Below, piece by piece: positions 4,863 to 53,402 of a stretch of DNA of 53,402 bases. Source of the stretch: Okeania sp. SIO2G4 (GTDB taxonomy: Bacteria; Cyanobacteriota; Cyanobacteriia; Cyanobacteriales; Microcoleaceae); contig NZ_JAAHGW010000045.1 of assembly GCF_010672295.1 (NCBI RefSeq), forward strand, positions 1-53,402, in the 5' to 3' direction. How positions within the stretch are numbered: position 1 is the first letter of the stretch; each line of letters begins with the position of its first letter. The position numbers were made by a program, and so were the translations under genes. Under the pieces are notes generated by a model. It worked only from the letters and a program-made list of their open reading frames with translations, was not told where the DNA came from and searched no databases.

Positions 4863-5586
4863 ATGACTTATTGCCTTGGTATTATTACTGAATCTGGTAT
4901 TGTAATGGCCTCTGACTCTCGTACTAATGCGGGAGTAGACTATATTTCCACTTACCTGAAGCTATTTGATTTTTCTCTGACTGGAGAGCGGGTTATCCTC
5001 ATCAGCACTTCTGGAAATTTGTCAATTACTCAAGGAGTAATCACTGAACTAAAAAAAAGACTTCAAGATTTCTGAGGATACTAATCTTCATACTATTCCT
5101 ACCCTTTACGAAATTGCTCGCTATATTGGGAGTAAAATTCGACAGATTCAAGAAAAAGACCGCTCTTGGCTACAAAAGGATCGAATTGACACTGGATGCA
5201 GTATATTACTAGGGGGTCAAATTAAAGGACAAGATCCTGAATTATTTTTGATTTATTCTCAAGGGAATTGTATTTCTGCTACAAAAGAAACACCTTTTCT
5301 ACAAATAGGTGAGACTAAGTATGGCAAACCAATTTTAGACCGTGCTTTAAGTTTTTATACTTTTTTAGAAGCTGCTGCTAAATGTGCTTTAGTTTCTCTA
5401 GATTCTACAATGAAATCTAATCTTTCTGTGGGACCTCCGATTAATTTGGTGATGTATGAAAAGGATAGTTTTCAAATTCGGCATCGCCTGCAAATGCGTC
5501 TGGGCGATCCTTATTTAGCTAAAGTGCGAAAGTTATGGGAGGAGTTTATCAAACAAGTTCTTGATGAAATGCCAGATTTAAACTGA
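4863..5586 (+). pseudogene. proteasome-type Ntn-hydrolase peptidase (Anbu/HslV-like beta-subunit family), split by a frameshift in an A8 homopolymer
   Basis: Frame A (4863..5075) starts MTYCLGI, placing Thr2 as the nucleophile as in Anbu/HslV. Frame B stays open from 5053 to 5586. The two join seamlessly if one A is removed from the run at 5051..5058, giving ELKK|DFKISEDTNLHTIP and a ~239-aa protein. Confidence 0.6.
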
Positions 5587-8676: not shown

Positions 8677-9400
8677 TGTATGATATTAATCTTAATTATT
8701 TTAGGAGTCAACTCACCCCTCGCCCCTCCCCCTCCCAGGAGGGAAATTCAGGAGTCAGGAGTCAGGAGGCATCGAAGGAAGAGAATTGAGAAAGATTTAG
8801 CAATGACTAAAGATATAGCAGTATGCGCTAGTATATTCACAAATTGCAGGAACTACCCAATAGATAAAAGTCTGATATAACTCCTAAGAAATAGCCTAGC
8901 TATTTGCTGATAGTATTTCTCACAAACATCGATCGTGCTTGTTATTACTAATGATATTAAATCCGGTTGAATACTTATCATATATTTGGGAGTGGGGAGT
9001 AGGAGAGTAGGGGCGAATGGCATTAGCGAACGCTCTCAGTAGATTTAGTATCCGTGCAGAGGATCGGTTTTTCCCAGGCTGCTATTAAACAAATGGACAT
9101 GATATAAGTCCTAAAATATGTTTAAGAACTTATTAAGAATCTATATCAATAAAATTAAGGTTATGTTAGGTGATTTTTTGAATAAATTATAAATAATATC
9201 ACCCATAAAAAAAAGGATTGTGCATGATGAACATTTCTTGCTACTAGGACTACTAAACTAATTGTTTCTTATATATCTCCTAGATTTTCCTGCTATTTCT
9301 TACTTGCTCTCCAACCCCAACTCAATTGATGTAACAGATACCCCTTAATAAAACTTCATATTTTATTGTTGATAAAAAATATTAATTGTGTTCAAATAAA

Positions 9401-9417
9401 ATTATTGATAATAAAGC
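9401..9417 (+). promoter_or_regulatory. candidate Fur/iron box upstream of the isiA-like operon
   Basis: ATTATTGATAATAAAG lies ~170 bp upstream of the first isiA-like start and resembles the GATAATGATAATCATTATC Fur-box core (TGATAAT). A second AT-rich TTGATAAAAAATATTAAT sits at 9368..9386. Confidence 0.3.
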
Positions 9418-9587
9418 TCAATTATAGTAGTCCTATTTCCGCTATGTAGAAAATATCCAACAGAGCAAAGGTATAAGGAATAATCATCATCAAAATTTTT
9501 ATTCTACTTTGGGATTTTTACAAATTATTTAGGACTGCTATAGAGCCTTCTTTAACTGATCTTCATCAGACTGAGGACCAAATCTCT

Positions 9588-10688
9588 ATGCAAACACTTG
9601 GCAATGAAGAAAGCAGCACCATGTCTACAACTAACGACAGTGGAGTTTTCTGGACACCTGTTTGGCGATCGCTAGGCTGGTATGTTGAGGCCACTGAAGA
9701 AGAAGGTGCAGCTTTATTAGGAGGTAATATCAGGTTCAAAGACCTCTCTGGGCAATTACTAGGTGCCCATGTAGCCCATGCTGGTTTAATCATGCTGTGG
9801 GCAGGTGCCATGACACTGTTTGAGCTATCTCAGTTTGACCCCAGCGTACCAATGTACGAGCAAAAACTAATATTACTACCTCATCTAGCAACATTAGGTA
9901 TTGGTATCGAAGCAGGGGTACAAACAATCGACACCTATCCCTACTATGTCATCGGTATGCTGCATCTCATCAGTTCTGCTGTTTTGGGAGCAGGAGGTAT
10001 CTACCATGCAGTTTTAGGGCCGAAACAGCTTGATGAGAAAGGTTTTGGCTACGACTGGGAAGATGGCAACAAGATGACTACTATTTTGGGTATTCATCTA
10101 GTGCTGTTGGGGGTTGGAGCATCACTATTAGTCATTAAAGCAGTGATTTTAGGTGGTATTTACGACCCACTAATAGAACAAGTAAGGTTAATACAGCCTA
10201 ATCTCGATCCCGTGAGAATTTTCGGTTATCTGTTTGGCTTTAGTCCTAATGGTTGGACAATTACTGGCATGGCTAGCGTAGATAATCTCGAAGATGTAAT
10301 AGGCGGTCATGTTTGGGTCAGCCTACTCTGTATTGGAGGAGGTCTCTTTCACATTATTTCCAAACCTACAGGTTGGGCAAAAAAAATACTAATCTGGTCG
10401 GGAGAAGCTTACTTGTCCTACAGTTTAGGGGCACTTGCGATCGCAGGATTTAGCGTAGCTGTCTTTGTCTCCACTAACGAAATTGTTTATCCTAGCGTGT
10501 TTTACGGTCCTATTGGCAGCGACTCTGTGCGTTCTGCTCTTGCTAGCGTTCATGCTGGATTAGGTTTTTTAGCTTTGGTCGGACACTTATGGCACGCTTA
10601 TCGAGCGCGAGCTGCTACTCGTAAAGTATTTTATGGAACCTTCTTTGACTTTATGGCTAAGAATGTCACACCTATTACACCTGCATGA
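9588..10688 (+). CDS. isiA: chlorophyll-binding protein, IsiA/Pcb/CP43' family (copy 1)
   Basis: Has the CP43/IsiA signature [22 protein letters not shown] and six predicted TM helices. At 366 aa it lacks the large lumenal loop of PsbC. Confidence 0.85.
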
Positions 10689-10740
10689 ACATGAAGTCAA
10701 AATCTAAGTTCAATCACTAATAAGAAGGAGAACAACAGCA

Positions 10741-11772
10741 ATGACTGTAGTAACTGATGAGAATCTGCAAATCCCTTGGCGGGCAGGTAATGCTCGGCTT
10801 GTTGATCTATCCGGCAAGCTATTGGGCGCTCATGTAGCCCATGCCGGTCTAATTGTACTCTGGGCTGGAGCTATTACTTTGTTTGAAGTTGCCAACTTTG
10901 AACCCTCCCTACCGATGTACGAGCAGGGCTTAATTGTACTACCTAATCTAGCCCGCTTGGGAATTGGGGTTGGTGAAGGAGGTGCCGTTGTGGATACTTA
11001 CCCCTACTTCGTGATTGGGGCACTGCATTTGATTAGTTCAGCATTTTTGGGAGCAGGTGGAATGTTCCATGCTCTCAGAGGTCCTGCCAAGCTAGAGGGT
11101 ACATTTTCCTTCTTTGGCTATAGCTGGGATAATCCAGGTAAAATGACAACTATCCTGGGTATACATCTAATGCTATTGGGAATCGGAGCCTTCTTACTTG
11201 TGGCAAAGGCGATGGCATTTGGAGGATTATACGATCCAGTAGTTCAAAATGTAAGAGTCATATCAGATCCCACTCTAAATCCGATTACCATTTTCGGCTA
11301 CTTATTTGGTACAGAAGGGAAATTCTGGCTTGCTGGTGTCAACTCTCTAGAGGATGTAGTAGGCGGTCATATATGGATTGGTGCTATCTGCATTTTGGGT
11401 GGTATCTGGCATATTCGCACCGTACCCTTTACCTGGGCTAAAGGCTTATTTGTCTGGTCTGGAGAAGCATATTTGTCTTACAGTATTGGCGCAGTTAGCT
11501 TAATGGCATTTATAGCAACATTGTTTGTGTCTGTTAACTCTCTAGTATTTCCCACAGAATTTTTCGGACCAACTTTGACTCTGGTGTTCGATCGCTTTCC
11601 TGTGTTTGTTAGCTCTGATGGGGCCTTGACTGCAAGAGTATGGTTAGCTAATGCCCACTTCTGGTTAGGATTTTTCTTCCTGCAAGGACATTTATTCCAC
11701 GCCCTACGTGCAGCAGGCTATAGCTTCATCGAAGGCAGAGTAGTCACATTTACAAGAGGTCAAGTAAGCTAG
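10741..11772 (+). CDS. isiA: chlorophyll-binding protein, IsiA/Pcb/CP43' family (copy 2)
   Basis: 343 aa, starting [31 protein letters not shown]. An AAGGAG RBS sits 9 nt upstream. It lies 52 nt after copy 1. Confidence 0.85.
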
Positions 11773-11774
11773 TT

Positions 11775-13340
11775 ATGACTGTCACTAAATCAAATCCATT
11801 AAGGTTTTTAGGCTTTTCGACAGATGATAATATTGATGTTACGAACTATGTTGGAGATTCCCAAGAACCCTATTCCTGGTGGGCTGGTAATTTTCGCTTT
11901 GTTAACCTGTCTGGAAAGTTATTGGGAGCGCACATTGCTCATGCAGGGTTGATTGTACTCTGGGCTGGAGCAATGACTCTGTTTGAGCTATCACAATTCG
12001 ACCCTAGCCTTCCCATGTACGACCAAGGGCTGATTTTGCTGCCCCATTTGGCGACTCTGGGTATAGGGGTTGGAGCCAATGGTGAAATTATTGATACTTA
12101 TCCCTACTTGGCTATTGGTGTTGTCCATCTGGTTAGTTCAGCAATTCTAGGCGCTGGTGGGATTTACCATGCCGTGCTTGGACCTGACAAACTTGATGAA
12201 AAAGGGTTTGGCTACAACTGGGAAGATGGCAAAAAAATGACTACTATCCTTGGTATTCATCTTCTGCTATTAGGGATGGGAGCATTTTTGCTAGTAGTCA
12301 AAGCTATGTATTTTGATGGTTTGTATGACCCGGCAGTAGCTGATGTGAGACTGATTACTCAACCTACTCTCAACCCACAGACTATCTTCGGTTACCTAGT
12401 AGGTATTACTCCTGACGGTTGGACTCTGAAGGGTATGGCTGCTGTCAACTCTCTAGAAGATGTGGTGGGCGGTCATATATGGATTGGTAGCATCTGTATT
12501 CTAGGTGGTATCTGGCATATTACTACTGCTCCTACTAAATGGGCTAAGGGCTTATTTGTCTGGTCGGGAGAAGCATATCTTGCTTATAGTCAGGCAGCTC
12601 TGGCTTATATGGGCTTTTTCGCAGCCTACTTTGTCTGGGTGAATGATACAGTCTATCCTTCAGTATTTTATGGTCCTGTAGGTGTGACTAATGTTGATGG
12701 TACAATCACTCCTCGTACCTGGCTGATGTTGTTCCAACTCATCTTTGCCTGTCTACTGTGGGCTGGCCACTTCTGGCATGGTCTCAGAGCTAGAGCGATC
12801 GCTAGTGGATTTGTCTTCAGTAATCTGAAATTCAATCCTGGTGCCCTCTATGGAGACACTCAGTTTAATAACGAATCTCTAGTTACTGGTATTGTACAGC
12901 CTTTCCAGAACAATCCTCAATTGGGTAATTTGGCAACCCCAATTAATTCCAGTCAGCTTACCATAACTTGGGTTAAGAACTTGCCAATTTACCGCAATGG
13001 TTTATCTCCTATTGCACGGGGTCTAGAAATTGGCATGGCTCATGGCTACCTATTATTAGGGCCTTTTCTCAAGCTCGGACCATTGCGTAACACCGACCAA
13101 GCTCTTCTGGCTGGAGGTGGTAGTGCATCTGGCTTAGTAGTGATTTTAAGTATCTGTCTGTTTGTTTATGGGGCGGTAGTGTTTCAAGGTTCTAGAGAAC
13201 CAAGAGGCGTTTTACCGGAGAACCTACAAACTTATCAGGAATGGAGTTTGTTTACCTCTGGTTTTCTCATTGGAGGACTAGGCGGTGTAGTTTTTGCCTG
13301 CTTTATCCTTATAGAAATCGGGCGAGCGGGAATTTTGTAA
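11775..13340 (+). CDS. isiA: IsiA-like chlorophyll-binding protein fused to a C-terminal PsaL domain
   Basis: The N-terminal ~340 aa form an IsiA domain ([31 protein letters not shown]). The C-terminal ~150 aa match PsaL ([34 protein letters not shown] plus two TM helices). The start is 3 nt after copy 2. Confidence 0.85.
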
Positions 13341-27442: not shown

Positions 27443-27737
27443 ATTAGTTACTTGTGAATTTTTGTACTGTTTAATATTATAACTTAACAAGAGCATTTTA
27501 TCGGTTTTTTGTCTCAAATTCAATGCCCTAGTGTTAGACAAATTTTTATGTTGGCGACTGCCGTTTGCGTAGCATTCTGTAGGAAAATAATTAATAATTA
27601 ATTATTACTTATCTTTGGCCAAGTTCTTTACATTGAAAAAGTTTGATCGACCAAGAGAAGAAAAAATTTTCATTATTAGTCAATCCTCTTCTTTTCAAGT
27701 AGAGGTAATTATTAATTATTAATTATTAATAATTATA

Positions 27738-27895
27738 TCATGTCCGGTAGCATCGGTATTGTATAGCAAGGGTAGGGAACACTTAACTGGGAACAGGGAA
27801 CAGTCAGGAATACTTAAGAGCAAGAAAAAAACTTAAATTTCCTGTAGATATTCACCTTTGGGTTTACACAAACGCGCCCCAGTGGACATGATATT
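27738..27895. mobile_element. MITE-like element, second copy (same TIR family)
   Basis: ATATCATGTCCGGTAGCATCGGTATTGTATAGC ... GGGTTTACACAAACGCGCCCCAGTGGACATGATAT. The internal sequence differs from the copy at 19681 and includes a GGGAACA STRR. Confidence 0.7.
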
Positions 27896-27960
27896 AATTG
27901 TTGAATCCTATCTCCTCGCTCATTCCCATTTCTCCCCTCCTGGGAGGGGTTAGGGGTGGG

Positions 27961-28050
27961 TTGTCTCCTGTCTCCTTTCTTCCCCTCCTGTCTCCTTTCT
28001 TCCCCTCCTGTCTCCTTTCTTCCCCTCCTGTCTCCTTTCTTCCCCTCCTG
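27961..28050. repeat. 20-nt tandem repeat (CCTCCTGTCTCCTTTCTTCC x ~3.7) flanked by inverted CCCACCCCTAACCCCTCCCAGGAGG short-dispersed-repeat copies
   Basis: Direct reading. The flanking SDR also occurs at 8700..8770, 29536..29605 and 51945..51990. Confidence 0.85.
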
Positions 28051-28403
28051 GGAGGGGTTAGGGGTGGGTTGTCTCCTACCCCTACTAAAAGACTTTTGAG
28101 CGCAAACCCTAATTATTGCTCTGCTGATTAAATCTCAAAGCATTGATATATAAAGATATTAGCCTTTTTTAGCTGGAAATACCTGGTTTTGATCCCTTCA
28201 CGCTCATGCATGAAGCGCATTTTGGGGTGACTATGGCAGAAAAATCACTCTTGCTATAATGAACAACCACCTTATCTATAACTCCCTCGTTCCTCCTGAC
28301 TCTTAACTACTCCCTACTCCCTACTCCCTACCTCAACAAAAAGACTTTCCATAAGCAAACCCTAATTAGTATTAGAAGGTAGAGAGTTGAAGCGTCATAA
28401 AAT

Positions 28404-29348: not shown

Positions 29349-30664
29349 TTTATTGTTCTTAAATTAGACTCTGTTTCTATTTTATTGAATCAGGTAGAAT
29401 AAAGCTGTTTAAATCAATTTTTAACTGGTAAAAATATTGTGTTATTATCAAGTCGATGAAAGTCTCCTTCAATATTATGGATAATACTTTTCAAGCTCTA
29501 GAATGCGATACTGATATTTTGATAAAACGATGGAGGAGTCAGGAGTCAACCCACCCCTCGCCCCTCCCCCTCCCAGGAGGGGAAGTCAGGAGTTAGGAGG
29601 AAAAAAGAAGGAAGTTTTTTATCAGTAATTAAGCGGACATGATATAAGTCAATTGCCTCTTGGTTTTTTCAAGAAAAGCTAGAAATTATTGAAAATGAAG
29701 TAAGAATTATCTTCGGAGATATAAAGTTAATTTTCCCAATAGAAGGTATTGAGTGTAAGATATTAAAACTTGGCTCTAAAACTTGGAAACCTGGTAAGCT
29801 GAGAATTCAAGTAATACTCAAAAATGCTAGTATTCAAACTATGGAATTTTAATTTTGTTATGACGAACCACCACAACAAGAATCACCATTAGACGATATT
29901 CGACAAAGAGAAGATTATCAACAACTTTTAAATAATCAATAAACTTATTACTGGCAAACTGGAAAACTAAAAAAATGAAAACTAAAAAAATATTCAGTGT
30001 GACACTACTAATTATACTGTAAGTATTATTTTGAGACTATAAGTATTATTTTAAATTTATTTATACAGCAGATTTCACCTAAGTTAAGTACACCAGTAGC
30101 GGAAAAAATACCCGCACCACAAAAGTTTTATTTAAACTCTATTATTAAGGGCGAAGTCTTAATTTTTTTTACTTCATATACTTGCATTTTGCTGTATTAA
30201 ACTCAACTCTATCATTATTTTATCTGTTCAAATTTTTCAACTTTAATTTTGCTACATGAATAGTCTTTCCATTATCCAGTTTAAAATTTTTCCTAAAGCA
30301 AATCCTCCTGCCAATGCTAAGAAAATATAATACAGTAGATTCCACTTTAATCAGATACACCCGTCGCTGGCAAGATGCCCGCACTAGAAACATTTAATTG
30401 TTAATCTCTGTACTTCTTATGGGAGGAATCTGCTGTAATTTATATTTATAACTCCAGCTTAAGTTTCTAGAATGTTCTAAATAAAGAAAGATAGAAAAAA
30501 ATAGCAGGCAAAAACAGTACTAAAACTAAAGTTATAGTGTTTATAAAAGTTATAGCAGTCGAAGGAAAGGTTAGGAGAAATAAAAAACTTAAAACTCAGA
30601 CAAAGGAATATTTTTCCTTCTTCCCTCTTCCTTCTGCTATATACCAATTCCTAAAAATAATGCT

Positions 30665-34628: not shown

Positions 34629-35080
34629 AAAGAAACGTAAGTATTTAGCCGTCAGCTTTCAGCTCCATTAGAACTAATGACTATAGCCTTTAAAGCAGAA
34701 GTTACCATTGACAGATTTTATCTAATTAAAAATATGAATTAAAAGTTTCCCTAGTAACTTCTAAAGTCTTAAAAAATGCTTACTTCATTTATTAATCAAG
34801 ATGAGAGCTGACCACTAATCACTGTTTGTGGAGCATTCAGGCACGGAAATCCTTATACCAATTTCATAAACTTGAGCTACTTAGGTTTGGAGTAGTCAGT
34901 AGTCAGTAGTCAGTAGTCAGGAGGTAAGGTGAGTAGCCTTACTTTTTGAATTTGGTATTACAAAGAAACAAAGAATATGGAAGAGATAAAAAAGTAGAAA
35001 CTTGCTCAATAGACATATAGATATCTCCAGAAAAGAGATAACAGGTAACAGGAAGAAATAATAGAAATCATCAATTATTT

Positions 35081-35140
35081 CTCCCTACTCCCCTACTCCC
35101 CTACTCCCTGCTCCCTACTCCCTACTCCCTAAATTGGGAT
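35081..35140. repeat. STRR heptamer tract (TACTCCC / GGGAGTA x ~8)
   Basis: CTCCCTACTCCCCTACTCCCCTACTCCCTGCTCCCTACTCCCTACTCCCT. Similar tracts occur at 28301..28335, 40411..40425, 40572..40590 and 50851..50885. Other heptamer STRRs: GGTACAA at 200..220, CCTGTTC at 6251..6280, AGTCAGT at 34893..34920. Confidence 0.9.
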
Positions 35141-35219
35141 TAATCAACCCATTAGCCGTACCAAAAATATTAATTGGACTCTTACCATCAGTAATTAAAA
35201 CACTCTGAAGACCAAGCCC

Positions 35220-36776
35220 CTACAACAACCTCGCCTGCATTTCTGGGCCATCTTGAGCGATCGCCCGAATTGTCTCAGCCCCCAAAGCCTCCACTTTTTG
35301 CTGAAACTCAGTAGCAGTAATTTCAGCCATTTGCCTTGCCTTCTCAATCTCTAAATTATTCAGTGTCTGCTGATGGGCTAACTCAGTCTCCTGACGCGCC
35401 CTCAACTGAGCCATCTCAGCCTCATGGCGAATCCGTGCTGCTTCTACTTCCTGCTGCGCCAAATTCACCGCCAACTGGCCTTGAAAAGGAGATAACATAT
35501 AAGCTTGAGGTCCATTGACTAATTTTAGTTCCCCACTTTGAACATCCCGTACATATATACCTTCATTTTTGTCTAGGGGAATAGCCTGAAGTTTTTCTAA
35601 TACTTCTAATTCCACTGGGGGAATATAATCTCTTGGCCCAGTAATCATCCATAAATCTCCTGGTTGCCGAGTAATAACGTTTGCTCCTGTTCCCTCGGTG
35701 AAAGTTTCCTCAACTCTGATTAGGAGTGCTTCTTGTTCACCAAGAATATAGACCTTTTTAATTCCTGTTTCTAAATCTTCTCCTGGGTGCAAAAAGAAAG
35801 ATGTTCTGCCCTGACGCACTTCTTTCATACCCCACTGCGGTTTACCATCTGCATCTATGGGATTAGTTACTATGCACCATTCGCGATCGCTTAAAGTAGT
35901 GATTTTGACTTCTCCCACTACTTCTTCATAAACGTCGGGAATATGAATTTCAGCATCTGCAAAAGTAACTAACTATTCATCTCCCGCTTTGCGTTGCTGA
36001 CCAAAAATATCAGTAAAAGTCCGTTTTGCTTTTAGATGTAGTGCTTGACGTTCGGTTAATACATAGGCATCAATAGTATCGACAATTTCTTCATCTACTC
36101 CAGGCAAATAAGCACCTTCTTCCCTGACCAACCATTATTCCCCAGTTCTACGTCTGTTACCTTGACGATCTATACAATTTTGTCGTGCCAGCAGTCGTAA
36201 GGCTTGGTTAGGTTTAATTATTTTAGCTATAACTGTGACTACCACTTCAACTTCTACCCTGGGAGTGTAAGTTCCTGGCCCCTCAAATAACCATTCATCC
36301 CCTGTCGTACGAGTGACAGTTTGAGACTCTCCTGCAACGGTGACTGTATCAGTAAAATCTCGTATTGCTTTGAGACGTAGAGTTTGGTTTGTGTCAATTA
36401 CTTGTAGTTGAGTTACATCTTCTTCGAGTATTTCTCCTGGATATAGTGGGAAAGTGTCTTGAGCAAAGCGAATTTCCAGATCGCCATATTTGAGTCTAAT
36501 TTAACCATACTCATCGGCCACAAGTTGATCTGAACTATTTCTTAGTACAGGGTTAGTTACTACACAATAATGGCGAGGTGGAACTACAATTGTCAGTTGT
36601 GGTTGTAAGACTAACCTTTCTGCATCTCCAAGGGTAATGGTTTGAGGGCCTATTTCTAGTCTGGTGACACCAGTGTTATTGTCAAGAACATGAATATACT
36701 GTTGTGGCTTCAGGAGAATTATACCATTGTTCTCTATTGTAATTGGATATTCTGTGGTACTTTTTATTTTACTCAT
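35220..36776 (-). pseudogene. major vault protein (MVP) homolog: one uninterrupted reading frame containing three in-frame stop codons (TAA, TAA, TAG) and no frameshifts
   Basis: My manual minus-strand translation aligns along its whole length with eukaryotic MVP. At the N-terminus, YIHVLDNNTGVTRLEIGPQT...VVPPRHYCVVTNPV matches human [20 protein letters not shown]...[13 protein letters not shown]. The Vault repeats follow ([13 protein letters not shown]; TGE*WLV; AGDE*LV), then the shoulder region (KSFFL-like TSFFLHPGEDLETGIKKVYILGEQEALLIRV; AIPLDKNEGIYVRDVQSGE), then the cap-helix coiled coil ending IRAIAQDGPEMQARLL. The stops sit at plus-strand 36501..36503, 36132..36134 and 35965..35967, replacing a Q, an E and the W of the conserved G(D/E)EW motif. 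The ORF finder reports only the fragments 36501..36776 and 35220..35918. Confidence 0.8.
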
Positions 36777-36839: not shown

Positions 36840-39218
36840 CTATCGTCGCCAAATTTTAATAGTTCTGTCTTTACTACCACTAGCAATACTATTACCATCA
36901 GGACTAAAAGTAACTGTATAAATCTCATCTTTATGCCCGGTCAAAGTACTAACTAATTCTCCTGTTTCTAAATCCCATATCTTAATATTATTATCCTTAC
37001 TGCCACTAGCAATATATCGACCATCTTCGCTAATATCAACAGATACAACTTCAGCAGTATGACCAAGAATAGTTTTGATTAATTCTCCTGTTTTTAAGCT
37101 CCAAATTTTAATAGTATTATCGTAACTCCCACTCACTATTTTTTCCCCATCTGGACTAATATCAACAGACCTAATTACTCCTTCATGTCCAGTCAATGTA
37201 TTAATTAATTCTCCAGTATATAAATCTTCAATTTTTATAGTTTGATCTGCACTACCACTAACCAATATTCTGCCGTCAGGACTAATAGCAATAGAATAAA
37301 CTACATCTGAGTGATCGGGGAAATTAAAAATTAAGAAACCTGTTTCTAAATCCCAAACTTTAACTGTTTTATCTCCACTAGCACTAGCAATTGTTTGATT
37401 ATCAGAACTCATAGCAACTGACCAAACAGGTGCCCAATGTTCAAATACTCGAAATAATTCTCCTGTTTCCAAATTCCAGATCATTACTCTCCAATCATAA
37501 GTACCTACCACTAATTTAGTACCATTATTATTCAAAGCAACTGACCAAATTGGAGAATCATCTGCAGCTAATGTGTTGATAACTTTTCCTGTAGGAACTT
37601 CTAAAATTTTTACCGTTGTGTCTCTACTTCCAGTAACTAAAGTTTTGCCATTAGAACTAAATGCAAGAGTACCTATAGAAGCATTAAACCTAGACAAATC
37701 TTCAACTTGATAATTCTGCCAATTTATACCTTGTTGACAATTTTGTAAAAGAGATTGAGCTTCAGCAAAAATGCTAGATTTTTCACTAATTAAAGTTCCT
37801 TGATTAATACATTCTTCATAGTTGCGCTCTATGTATAAGTTTTTTACAAAATTAAATTTTGCCGATTCTTGTTCTTGCTGTTGTAATACTTGTTGTTGAC
37901 GTAATTGTAAATAATTTTGGAATTTAAGATATCTATATATAGCAAAGATTATTACAATTAAGGTAGCGATAAATCCTAAAATCAACTGCCAGTTAAAAGA
38001 TGATTGTTTGTTATTATTGCTAAATATTTTTTTAAATTTAGTAAGTAGAGATTTTGGTAAAACTCTGTTTTCTATTAATTCTATATCTTCTTGAGTTAGT
38101 CCTAAAATTTGCTGTAGACGCTCTAACTCCTGGCGAGTTTCTTGACTAAAAGGATATTCTTCCTGAATCGCAGCTTTTAATGTTTCTTCATATCTTTCTC
38201 CTTTCATCCGATATTTACGGTAAGGATTTAATACTTCATCCTCAATTATTTCCGTTTCTTCCCGGGAGAGTTCTAAACTTTCTCTAAGTTCATCTAAAAT
38301 TCTTCTCCCGACAATAGAAATATCTCCTCTATCGCTAGCTCGACGAATAACCTCTTCCCGATAAATTTCTTTATTATCTGTAGCGAAACTTGGAAACTCA
38401 TTAATTTTTTTTAAATCTGCTATAACTTCTGCTGCTGACTGGTAACGTTCGTGAAAGTTATAGCGCACCATTTTATCTAAAATATCTGCTAGAGAAGTAG
38501 AACAATTTGTTAGGTATCGCCAAAAAATCTCTTTTTTTTCACCATTTTCATTATCCTTTAGTTTCGATAATTCGCTGCTAGGCAATCCCGTAATTGCCTG
38601 AATGCCAATCATTCCTAAAGCATAAATATCACTATTGAATTGGGGATTATATTCAAATTGTTCAATTGGCATATATTCCATTGTGCCAATCCTAGCTGTA
38701 CGATTTTGCTGACCAATATTAATTTCTTTAACAGCTCCAAAATCAATTAATACTAATTGATTATCCGATTTTCTTCTAATTAAATTAGCAGGCTTAATAT
38801 CTCGATGAATAACACTATTTTCATGCACAAATACTAAAATTTCTAATACTTCATTGAGAATTAAAATTACTTGTTTTTCAGATAGGGGTTTACCTGGTAA
38901 TATTTCATTGTCTAAAGATTGACCAGGAATAAAAGATTGAACTAGAAAAAACTCTCGATCTTCTTCAAAATATGCAAGTAGTTTAGGAATTCGATCATGT
39001 TGAGAAAGCTTTTCTAGCATCTGTGCTTCTTTTTGAAATCGATCGCGAACGATATTAATTAATCTTCGATCATAAATACTTGGTTGCAGATGCTTAATAA
39101 AACATTGTGCTTCTCCAGGACGACGAATGTCTAAGGCCAGATAAGCATGGCCAATTTCCCCTGATTCAATAATTTTAATAATTTGATAGCGTCCATCTAA
39201 AATATTACCAATCATCAT
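36840..39218 (-). CDS. Ser/Thr protein kinase with a TM segment and C-terminal WD40 beta-propeller
   Basis: Hanks kinase motifs (HRDIKPANLI, DFG, GTMEYMPIEQ) are followed by a linker, a TM helix FNWQLILGFIATLIVIIFAIY and at least 7 WD40 repeats (..GSxDxTIKIW..). It ends 63 bp upstream of the MVP homolog start on the same strand. Confidence 0.85.
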   Translation of the reverse strand: MMIGNILDGRYQIIKIIESGEIGHAYLALDIRRPGEAQCFIKHLQPSIYDRRLINIVRDRFQKEAQMLEKLSQHDRIPKLLAYFEEDREFFLVQSFIPGQSLDNEILPGKPLSEKQVILILNEVLEILVFVHENSVIHRDIKPANLIRRKSDNQLVLIDFGAVKEINIGQQNRTARIGTMEYMPIEQFEYNPQFNSDIYALGMIGIQAITGLPSSELSKLKDNENGEKKEIFWRYLTNCSTSLADILDKMVRYNFHERYQSAAEVIADLKKINEFPSFATDNKEIYREEVIRRASDRGDISIVGRRILDELRESLELSREETEIIEDEVLNPYRKYRMKGERYEETLKAAIQEEYPFSQETRQELERLQQILGLTQEDIELIENRVLPKSLLTKFKKIFSNNNKQSSFNWQLILGFIATLIVIIFAIYRYLKFQNYLQLRQQQVLQQQEQESAKFNFVKNLYIERNYEECINQGTLISEKSSIFAEAQSLLQNCQQGINWQNYQVEDLSRFNASIGTLAFSSNGKTLVTGSRDTTVKILEVPTGKVINTLAADDSPIWSVALNNNGTKLVVGTYDWRVMIWNLETGELFRVFEHWAPVWSVAMSSDNQTIASASGDKTVKVWDLETGFLIFNFPDHSDVVYSIAISPDGRILVSGSADQTIKIEDLYTGELINTLTGHEGVIRSVDISPDGEKIVSGSYDNTIKIWSLKTGELIKTILGHTAEVVSVDISEDGRYIASGSKDNNIKIWDLETGELVSTLTGHKDEIYTVTFSPDGNSIASGSKDRTIKIWRR

Positions 39219-51529: not shown

Positions 51530-52349
51530 GAGGAAACAGAAAACCAGAAATTTATATTCTTAAAAATTAGAAATTAACTACACTGTGTTACAGGTTGAGA
51601 GTATTAGATAGGGAAAAAGATTACCAAATAATGAATAATTAGGATTTGCTGAAAAAGTATTATGATTGAGGTTAGGAGTCAGGATAAATAGGAATTATAG
51701 AGTAGGTATGAGTAAGAATTGTCCCTATATTTTTCTGCCCAACTCTTGCACAAAATGCTAACTTTTTGAGCTTGAGCAACCGAAAAGCTGGCACTTTTTT
51801 TCAGCCTAAAACAGTTAAAAACTTTATCTATCAATCCTTTGATATTTAATCAGCAAGTCCTAATTATTCATTAAAGTTTAAATTCAGATTCCCCACGTCA
51901 ATTTGTTACATAAAAAGTTTGCTGAAAAAGTCTTTTAGTAGGCGTAGGAGACAACCCACCCCTAACCCCTCCCAGGAGGGGAGAAATGGGAATGATCCAG
52001 GAGGTAGGATTCAACAATTAAGAATTAATAATTAATAATTACTTCTCTTTGAAAGCAGATAGGATTGACTCAAAGGAAAATTTTTTTCTCCTTTAAAGAT
52101 AATAAAGCTGATACCTGATAGCTGACTGCTGTTTGCGCAGCATTCCGCAAGAAATGCTTACAACTGTATTGACTTATAAATAGGGAGTATCGGAAATATT
52201 TCTCGTTGAGAAGAGGCTTCAAACCCAAATTTTTCGGTGAATATGGGGGCAATTTTCTACCTTTTTCCCTATTGTATTTCTCGAACTCCTAACTCTTGAC
52301 TCCTTTGCCAAAAACCCTTACCTTTGCAAAGATATCTAAGGGTTCTTTC

Positions 52350-52500
52350 ATTAATGGATAATTGATAATTGATAATTACCTCTCCCTTTTAGGGAGAGGA
52401 TTGACCAATAAGGAAAGAATTTATTTTTTCCCTTTGAAAGGGGAGACTTTCAACCTGAATTATTTAATTATTTAATTATTTAATTATTAATTATTCGGTC
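52350..52500. repeat. AT-rich palindromic element family ((AATTATT)n-ACCTCTCC-TTTAAAGGAGAGG-...(AATTATT)n)
   Basis: Related copies at 27650..27740, 50590..50720 and 52000..52100. Each has AATTATTAATT tracts flanking ACCTCTCCTT/AAAGGAGAGG inverted cores, which gives it a MITE-like look. Confidence 0.7.
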
Positions 52501-53123
52501 ATACCAGAATACGCGATAAATTTTGGCTACAAATAATAGAAAATTGTGATGATAATTTCTCTATATTATTGCTCTTTTCTTACTTCATTCTACTTCTTCC
52601 TTACTCCTTATCAAAAAACTAAATATTACAAAAATTTCAACTTAGATAATTAACCTTTTCTTGACTACCTTCTACTATAGCAATCAGGAATCAGTTGTGA
52701 GAATTGAGTTATTCCTTAAAAATATAGAATATAGCAATTATGATATTCATATGATACGTTTTTTTCTTCTTATCTGTTGCCTGTTCCCTGTTGCCTGTTC
52801 CCTAAAAGTTTCCAATATCTCACAACTCAAATCATATTGCTATATAAACTTACTGTCGCGATCGCAATTGCTTTACTATTACGATCTACTTTTATTATCC
52901 AAAATCTAAAAATAGTAAATTCTTGATTATATATTACTCAGTGTAATATGTATGTAATATAATTGATATAGCACTACGCAAATAGGTTAGGAAATTTATA
53001 AATACTCAAAGTTAGTCAGGGATTACTTCTAACTTTTGTAGGGGCAAATGGCCATTCGCCCCTGCTGACTTCTGACTTGCGTAGCGCCATAGCTGTGCCT
53101 CTAAAATATTTGATAGTAGAATT

Positions 53124-53402
53124 ATGGCAACTTTTCGGGACATCATTAAATACTACCAGGCATATCTACCACTTTCCATCTTAGGTATCGGAGCATCTAG
53201 CACTCTCGAACTAATTGATTTAATAGTTCCTTATGCCATCGGTCAGACTTTGAACATACTTTCAGACCGCTCTACAGACTGGCCAATGGAAAACTTGATT
53301 GGAGCAGTCTCCAATGTAACTGGACTACCAACTAATCAACTATTATCCCTATCAGTGACATTAGGACTAATATTTTTAGTCAGCATCACCAAAGGTCCAA
53401 CA
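53124..53402 (+). CDS. partial ABC transporter (N-terminal transmembrane domain), truncated by the window end
   Basis: ATG at 53124, open to the window end. MATFRDIIKYYQAYLPLSILGIGASSTLELIDLIVPYAIGQTL resembles the first TM helix of ABC exporters of the MsbA/HlyB type. Confidence 0.4.
   Translation, partial: MATFRDIIKYYQAYLPLSILGIGASSTLELIDLIVPYAIGQTLNILSDRSTDWPMENLIGAVSNVTGLPTNQLLSLSVTLGLIFLVSITKGPT

Follow-up and report, generated by a model that had tools for sequence, protein, structure and literature searches.

The 53,402-nucleotide stretch of DNA analysed here (Okeania sp. SIO2G4, contig NZ_JAAHGW010000045.1; the whole stretch is called the window below) carries on its minus strand a frame homologous to major vault protein (MVP). 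We put at about 0.94 the probability that this locus is a non-functional pseudogene, the remnant of a cyanobacterial MVP gene in an Okeania hirsuta-type genome. It appears to be an ordinary, moderately recent unitary pseudogene of a known family. The frame is interrupted by nonsense codons and a large deletion, and it is from these lesions that we infer a loss of function. An earlier reading of the window, made from the letters alone (the sequence-only reading), had listed a pseudogene among several possible explanations. That option was the correct one. The condition which that reading had named as pointing to an older pseudogene, relatives with identical stops and extra indels, applies to the sister haplotype described below.

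The MVP frame and its lesions

With its stops masked, the minus-strand frame matches the Pfam families Vault (9.4e-64, in four stretches), Vault_2 (9.8e-35) and Vault_4 (4.4e-08), and it matches the rat and human MVP structures at an E-value of 5e-159. Residues 17-430 of the frame align to residues 5-410 of rat MVP, and residues 431-546 to rat residues 735-850; the tandem N-terminal Vault repeats are present in the remnant according to both the Pfam matches and the rat alignment. On these matches we regard the homology of the frame to MVP as certain, beyond doubt, and this profile search of the masked translation bears out what the sequence-only reading had concluded about the identity of the gene. 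Retranslation of the single minus-strand frame from the ATG at 36776 also reproduces every peptide string that had been quoted from it.

From that ATG to position 35220 the translation comprises 519 codons with three internal stops, and the TAG at 35220..35222 had been taken for the terminator. Reading on past this point yields 34 further conserved in-frame codons, which make up the conserved MVP C-terminus (...NPNLGSRE, identical to that of the closest intact homolog, P0001) and lead to the true terminator, a TAG at 35115..35117. The full extent of the pseudogene is 35115..36776 (minus strand), that is, 553 codons and a terminator, compared with 860-930 amino acids (aa) in intact cyanobacterial orthologs. 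Its longest uninterrupted open reading frame (ORF) is of 232 aa, and none covers the full protein. The true terminator lies within a tandem array of the heptamer CTCCCTA (x7, 35081-35131), which overlaps the gene and supplies its stop; another heptamer, AGTAGTC, is repeated x4.3 at 34891-34920.

Four relatives enter the comparisons below: the related metagenome bin GCA_029976225.1 (L001), Okeania sp. SIO3I5 (L002), Dapis sp. BLCC M229 (L043) and Okeania sp. SIO2F4 (L044). Exactly three nonsense codons had been claimed for the frame, but there are four: (i) TAA at codon 92 (36501..36503), which is CAA (Gln) in all four relatives; (ii) TAA at codon 214 (36135..36137), ancestrally GAA (Glu); (iii) TAG at codon 268 (35973..35975), ancestrally TGG (Trp); and (iv) the supposed terminator, TAG at codon 519 (35220..35222), which replaces a GAG (Glu) found in the orthologs. 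All are on the minus strand. Each of the first three is a single base from its sense codon, as had been proposed, and the intact orthologs confirm CAA, GAA and TGG; as to their positions, the first had been given correctly, while the second (given as 36132..36134) was off by 3 bases and the third (given as 35965..35967) by 8.

The frame had further been described as having no indels. Relative to every intact ortholog aligned, 316-322 codons (~960 bp) are in fact gone between codons 430 and 431, in frame, with the junction at 35484..35487 (~35486/35485, minus strand) between ...AYMLSP and QGQLAVNL.... The missing part equals rat MVP residues ~411-734. If the rat shoulder spans residues 520-646 and the cap helix residues 647-802, the boundaries that we assume for the 2009 crystal structure, the deletion presumably reaches from late in repeat 8 through repeat 9 and the entire shoulder domain into the cap helix, of which it takes about the first half or somewhat more. 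Only the equivalent of rat 735-850 survives of the cap helix and cap ring. A Pfam search of the window frame did not detect the shoulder family (PF11978, MVP_shoulder), which is present in all of the best 120 of 2605 homologs, and this fits a deletion of the shoulder region. The motifs that the sequence-only reading had assigned to the shoulder align instead to rat ~305-400, which by the same assumed boundaries lies in repeats 6-8. Its observation that the protein is shorter than human MVP, with about five repeats, holds, but the shortness results from the deletion and does not mark a naturally short form.

A second gap, at 35770..35773 (~35772/35771, minus strand), corresponds to a segment of 54-55 codons that is present in L001, L002 and L044. 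A direct repeat (TTAGAAACAGAATT / TTTGAAACAGGAATT) lies on either side of it in L002. More distant orthologs likewise have no such segment, and both a gain and a loss are compatible with its distribution.

The same lesions in other Okeania hirsuta assemblies

The window region matches JAAHGU010000008.1 (GCA_010692685.1; L047) at 100% identity over 12,450 bases, and Okeania hirsuta PAB10Feb10-1 (contig NZ_RCBY01000026.1; L003) at 99.3-99.7%. Okeania is a genus of the Oscillatoriales, family Microcoleaceae, and the earlier assignment of the host to the Nostocales is thereby corrected. We compared six assemblies including the window, consisting of draft genomes and metagenome bins under different accessions, and at the MVP locus these represent two haplotypes. 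In type A, comprising the window, L047 and L051, the locus is identical; type B comprises L003, L048 and L049 (from GCA_003838225.1). The four stops and the large deletion are common to both haplotypes and to all six assemblies. In the O. hirsuta reference genome, a pattern scan found one MVP locus only.

Such sharing bears on the possibility that the gene is intact and that its stops are sequencing or assembly errors, as the sequence-only reading had considered. The absence of frameshifts is the one point on which that explanation draws, and nothing else was found in its favour. It would require that four stops and a ~960-bp deletion arose identically as errors in six assemblies, and with the same lesions present in the five assemblies beyond the window we regard it as excluded for practical purposes.

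The type B haplotype carries additional lesions. Two are further stops, a TTA>TGA change at codon 57 and a GAA>TAA change in the GPEMQ motif. The third is a 101-bp insertion resembling a miniature inverted-repeat transposable element (MITE), located at 6239-6339 in L003 and also found in L048 and L049, for which the window has an empty site at ~36537. Its terminal inverted repeats are 13 bp long (TAGCAATGAGCGC...GCGCACATTGCTA), it is accompanied by a TA or ATA duplication, and its length of 101 bp, not divisible by three, disrupts the MVP frame in type B. No copy of this element was found within the window.

Once the insertion is taken out, 12 of 1662 sites separate the haplotypes (8 nonsynonymous, 2 synonymous and 2 nonsense), whereas random mutation would give ~8.7 nonsynonymous, 2.8 synonymous and 0.6 nonsense changes. 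The corresponding ratio of nonsynonymous to synonymous rates (dN/dS) is ~1.2, from only those 12 substitutions. Changes specific to the window fall on residues that do not otherwise vary: Pro108Thr, Ala509Asp and a replacement of Leu by Ile in PINLF. A separate observation concerns GGTGAC, present twice in the pseudogene of the window, at 36339-36344 and 36663-36668: in both places, 324 bp apart, type B has GATAAC, an identical double G>A change, and none of three GTCACC sites in the remainder of the 11 kb compared has changed.

Whether the stops might be tolerated is a related question. Programmed readthrough or recoding, also raised by the sequence-only reading, would yield a functional shortened MVP, and it is true that the frame is kept through all of the lesions in the window and that the flanking residues are well conserved. 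However, suppression would have to act on all four stops, two of them TAA and two TAG, in a window where TAA ends 14/28 and TAG 8/28 of the long ORFs (22/28 together) and in which no tRNA gene was found. Recoding of TAA is not known in bacteria. The orthologs have sense codons at the stop positions, and the stops are of two types, where recoding would be expected to involve one. Moreover, the product would be without the shoulder domain, and the sister haplotype has the frame-breaking 101-bp insertion and two extra stops. Given this use of TAA and TAG as terminators, the deleted shoulder and the frameshifted sister haplotype, readthrough or recoding is untenable as an account of the locus, and we consider it highly improbable.

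A part of the gene might have retained a function by itself. The candidates are a 91-aa N-terminal peptide (36501-36776, minus strand), a GTG-initiated 232-aa ORF (35220-35918, minus strand) and the transcript, as a 3′ extension of the mRNA of the neighbouring kinase gene. Gene callers do list the fragments as ORFs with Vault matches, and 63 bp separate the pseudogene from the co-oriented kinase gene. In the sister haplotype, however, the new TGA cuts the N-terminal ORF at codon 57 and the new TAA shortens the 232-aa ORF to 225 aa, so that neither fragment is conserved even within the species. We judge a retained function of this kind to be very unlikely. A pseudogene without function, decaying in both haplotypes, remains the reading that we favour.

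Decay in related lineages and the cause of the loss

Intact and independently decayed copies are both observed among the relatives. Okeania sp. SIO3I5 has an intact MVP gene of 926 aa, flanked by the same kinase-WD40, Tmemb_14, DUF815 and TerB-like genes as in the window, and the bin GCA_029976225.1 has an intact gene of 924 aa in another genomic context. The copy in Dapis sp. BLCC M229 has an ATG>ATC change, a different frameshifting deletion and a second frameshift; its deletion removes sequence that is kept in the window and keeps sequence that is deleted there. The copy in Okeania sp. SIO2F4 is stopped at codon 9, has lost 1 bp and carries an insertion at ~1230-2557 that encodes a group II intron reverse transcriptase-like sequence followed by a TnpB-like sequence. 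Because none of the lesions of these two copies is shared with the window, MVP has been inactivated independently at least three times among the five sampled Okeania/Dapis lineages, two of which keep intact copies. MVP is dispensable in the Okeania/Dapis lineage and has been lost there repeatedly.

The age of the inactivation can be approached through dN/dS. Between genera the ratio is 0.05-0.10, and the MVP family is under strong purifying selection. Between the window copy and the intact copies of L001 and L002 it is 0.14-0.17, a value low enough to indicate that most of the divergence (dS ~0.39) arose while the gene was still constrained. The haplotypes diverge by 0.7% at the MVP locus and by 0.67% at the neighbouring kinase. 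The inactivation took place late on the O. hirsuta branch, before the haplotypes split, and is young relative to the split from the genomes with intact copies. The very recent origin suggested by the sequence-only reading is not supported, since the sister haplotype has the same stops and has since acquired further stops and the 101-bp insertion.

The most likely course of events is as follows. The ancestor would have had an intact MVP gene of ~870-925 codons at this place, with the kinase-WD40 gene upstream of it as it is now. On the way to O. hirsuta the gene would have been inactivated, and four GC-to-AT nonsense changes would have accumulated together with a blunt in-frame deletion of the shoulder and half of the cap helix, parts which, to judge from vault structures, would be needed to close the vault shell. 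These five lesions would have been fixed before the present-day haplotypes separated. Neutral drift would then have continued in both, with the sister haplotype gaining two stops and the 101-bp MITE-like insertion.

The predominance of nonsense codons among the lesions can be examined against mutational expectations. Under four mutation models, random substitutions in the gene create a stop in 4.2-5.9% of cases. Glu (55) and Gln (39) account for 94 of the 553 codons, or 17% of the gene, and a G>T change on the coding strand makes a stop 17% of the time and a C>T change 14% of the time. Each of the four stops common to both haplotypes arose by a GC>AT change (C>T, G>T, G>A and G>T). On the O. 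hirsuta branch, GC>AT changes outnumber AT>GC changes by 61 to 40, and G:C>T:A changes make up 19/121 there vs 0/52 and 5/67 in the intact lineages, with the polarity in both cases uncertain in a three-taxon comparison. These branch counts come from a codon alignment of the window, L001 and L002 only; an alignment of DNA from all five lineages was left unused because in it some parts of L043 and L044 without homology had been wrongly aligned.

Several observations weigh against a pseudogene that simply drifted. (i) The dN/dS of the window copy vs the intact orthologs is not above the 0.215 found between both intact copies, so that the only signs of relaxed constraint are the lesions and the 12 haplotype differences, a small sample. 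(ii) The adjacent intact kinase also differs between haplotypes, by 16 substitutions and 9 residue differences. (iii) A rough division of the branch into a selected and a neutral part predicts ~1-2.5 nonsense changes where four are seen (Poisson P ~0.02-0.24). (iv) The O. hirsuta lineage has six nonsense changes and zero small frameshifting indels, which is somewhat lopsided. If indels arise at ~1/10 of the substitution rate, as mutation-accumulation studies indicate, ~1-2 indels would be expected per nonsense change. The ratio of nonsense changes to small indels is 6:0 in O. hirsuta vs 1:2 in the relatives, with an exact probability, calculated by hand, of ~0.08. The excess of nonsense changes is thus marginal at most, suggestive and non-significant, and is largely explained by a Glu/Gln-rich sequence together with the GC>AT bias. 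No special mechanism is needed for the stops, and the absence of small indels is a mild residual oddity.

The loss could instead have been adaptive, if MVP imposed a cost or did harm in this clade (as a target for phage, say, or by burdening metabolism) and selection repeatedly favoured knock-outs. Both the recurrence of inactivation among the five sampled lineages and a nonsense count slightly above the rough neutral estimate could be cited for this scenario. Selection, however, can favour only the first inactivating hit and not four to six of them, no excess is significant, and two lineages have kept intact copies. In addition, long ORFs are sparse, with only 56% of the window bases in ORFs of >=100 aa, and the window contains a second candidate broken gene, which fit a generally relaxed maintenance of genes. 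Adaptive loss is consequently unlikely in our view, and drift rather than selection seems the probable cause of the loss of this gene.

Neighbouring genes, the wider window and known MVPs

An intact Ser/Thr kinase gene with a WD40 propeller (36840..39218, minus strand) ends 63 bp upstream of the MVP start codon, at the position and on the strand given by the sequence-only reading. That reading had noted an analogy with TEP1, the WD40 protein of eukaryotic vaults. In a tblastn search with the neighbouring genes, the kinase-WD40 gene lies beside MVP only in L002, L003 and L043 (3 of ~46 loci), all Okeania or Dapis; it is absent beside MVP in L001 and in ~40 other MVP loci with flanks of ~6 kb. 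All-against-all clustering of 417 neighbouring ORFs revealed no family conserved beside MVP across genera beyond synteny at the level of the clade. Among the best 25 of 65 Pfam matches, the kinase matches Pkinase and generic WD40 propeller families, with no TROVE or NACHT domain, and many generic WD40 models outscore those of the TEP1 propeller, as expected for generic cross-matches. With adjacency at 3 of ~46 loci and generic WD40 matches only, we reject a TEP1-like partner: the adjacency of kinase and MVP is coincidental local synteny and not a conserved partnership. No vPARP, TEP1 or vault RNA partner was found near the MVP locus of the window. In the kinase itself, 11 of the 16 substitutions between haplotypes cluster within ~220 bp of WD40 repeats (window 37583-37806), which may reflect gene conversion between the repeats.

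The GC content is 41.8% in the MVP remnant, 36.4% in the window and 32.1% in the kinase gene. Long intergenic stretches of the window (8677-9587, 27542-28403, 29349-30664 and 51530-53402) are full of GC-rich short repeats. The related genus Trichodesmium has a low coding fraction and gene remnants, and the repeat-rich intergenic regions of the window, its ORF coverage and its second candidate broken gene resemble Trichodesmium non-coding DNA. The latter gene, at 4870-5586 (plus strand), encodes a proteasome-type peptidase (PF00227, E 4.4e-05) and has a frameshift in a run of eight A's near 5052-5059; the split gene is either a second pseudogene or a homopolymer error. Elsewhere in the window, full-length Rfam matches to the IsrR antisense RNA (121-139 bits, minus strand) occur at 10056-10230, 11125-11302 and 12219-12396, each opposite one of three tandem ORFs (9588-13340, plus strand), which are putatively isiA/CP43′-like.

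The sequence-only reading considered MVP homologs to be very rare outside eukaryotes. Our protein search returned 2605 matches, the best 120 of which are 860-932 aa long, have all five vault-related Pfam domains (Vault, Vault_2, Vault_3, Vault_4 and MVP_shoulder) and come mostly from filamentous cyanobacteria, including Okeania, Moorena, Symploca, Microcoleus, Planktothricoides, Aerosakkonema and Nostoc sp. T09; they are often annotated as ‘colicin uptake protein’. Intact homologs at 70-79% identity are widespread in filamentous cyanobacteria. MVP in this group is neither new nor rare: homologs in Lyngbya majuscula, Oscillatoria acuminata and Microcoleus PCC 7113 were described, and horizontal transfer discussed, by Daly et al. 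2013 (PMC3762200), and bacterial MVPs were analysed further in a preprint (Sokolskyi 2019, 10.1101/872010). Homologs at 65-69% identity also occur in Ca. Parabeggiatoa, a Thiomargarita bin and an Anaerolineae bin (L038, L039 and L041), which suggests that a cyanobacterial-type MVP gene may have been transferred beyond the cyanobacteria.

The window copy belongs to the same family as the cyanobacterial MVPs of Moorena producens/Lyngbya majuscula 3L (F4Y3B4) and Allocoleopsis franciscana PCC 7113 and has the same domain order, with 72-88% identity to cyanobacterial MVPs over the parts that are kept and an orthologous intact gene at the same locus in Okeania sp. SIO3I5. Unlike these, it has four nonsense codons and is missing ~320 codons including the shoulder domain, and therefore cannot encode the full MVP family architecture. 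Compared with eukaryotic MVP (rat and human; PDB 4V60, 7PKZ and 2QZV), conservation is still recognisable in the repeats, at the end of the cap helix and in the cap-ring region; the differences are the bacterial host, the deletion of the equivalent of rat ~411-734 and the broken ORF.

As a discovery the locus carries little weight: the MVPs of cyanobacteria are plentiful and already on record, and where coding density is low, as in this genome, a pseudogene is routine. Its value for annotation lies in the corrected taxon and list of lesions, and in showing that the kinase-WD40 gene is not a vault partner. The one mildly interesting point is the recurrent loss of MVP in Okeania/Dapis, which bears on the question of what role MVP has in bacteria. 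We find it rather unlikely that the repeated independent losses reflect a change in lifestyle or selection rather than drift. If they did, close Okeania/Dapis relatives would be natural knock-out and wild-type pairs for finding the role of the bacterial MVP homolog.

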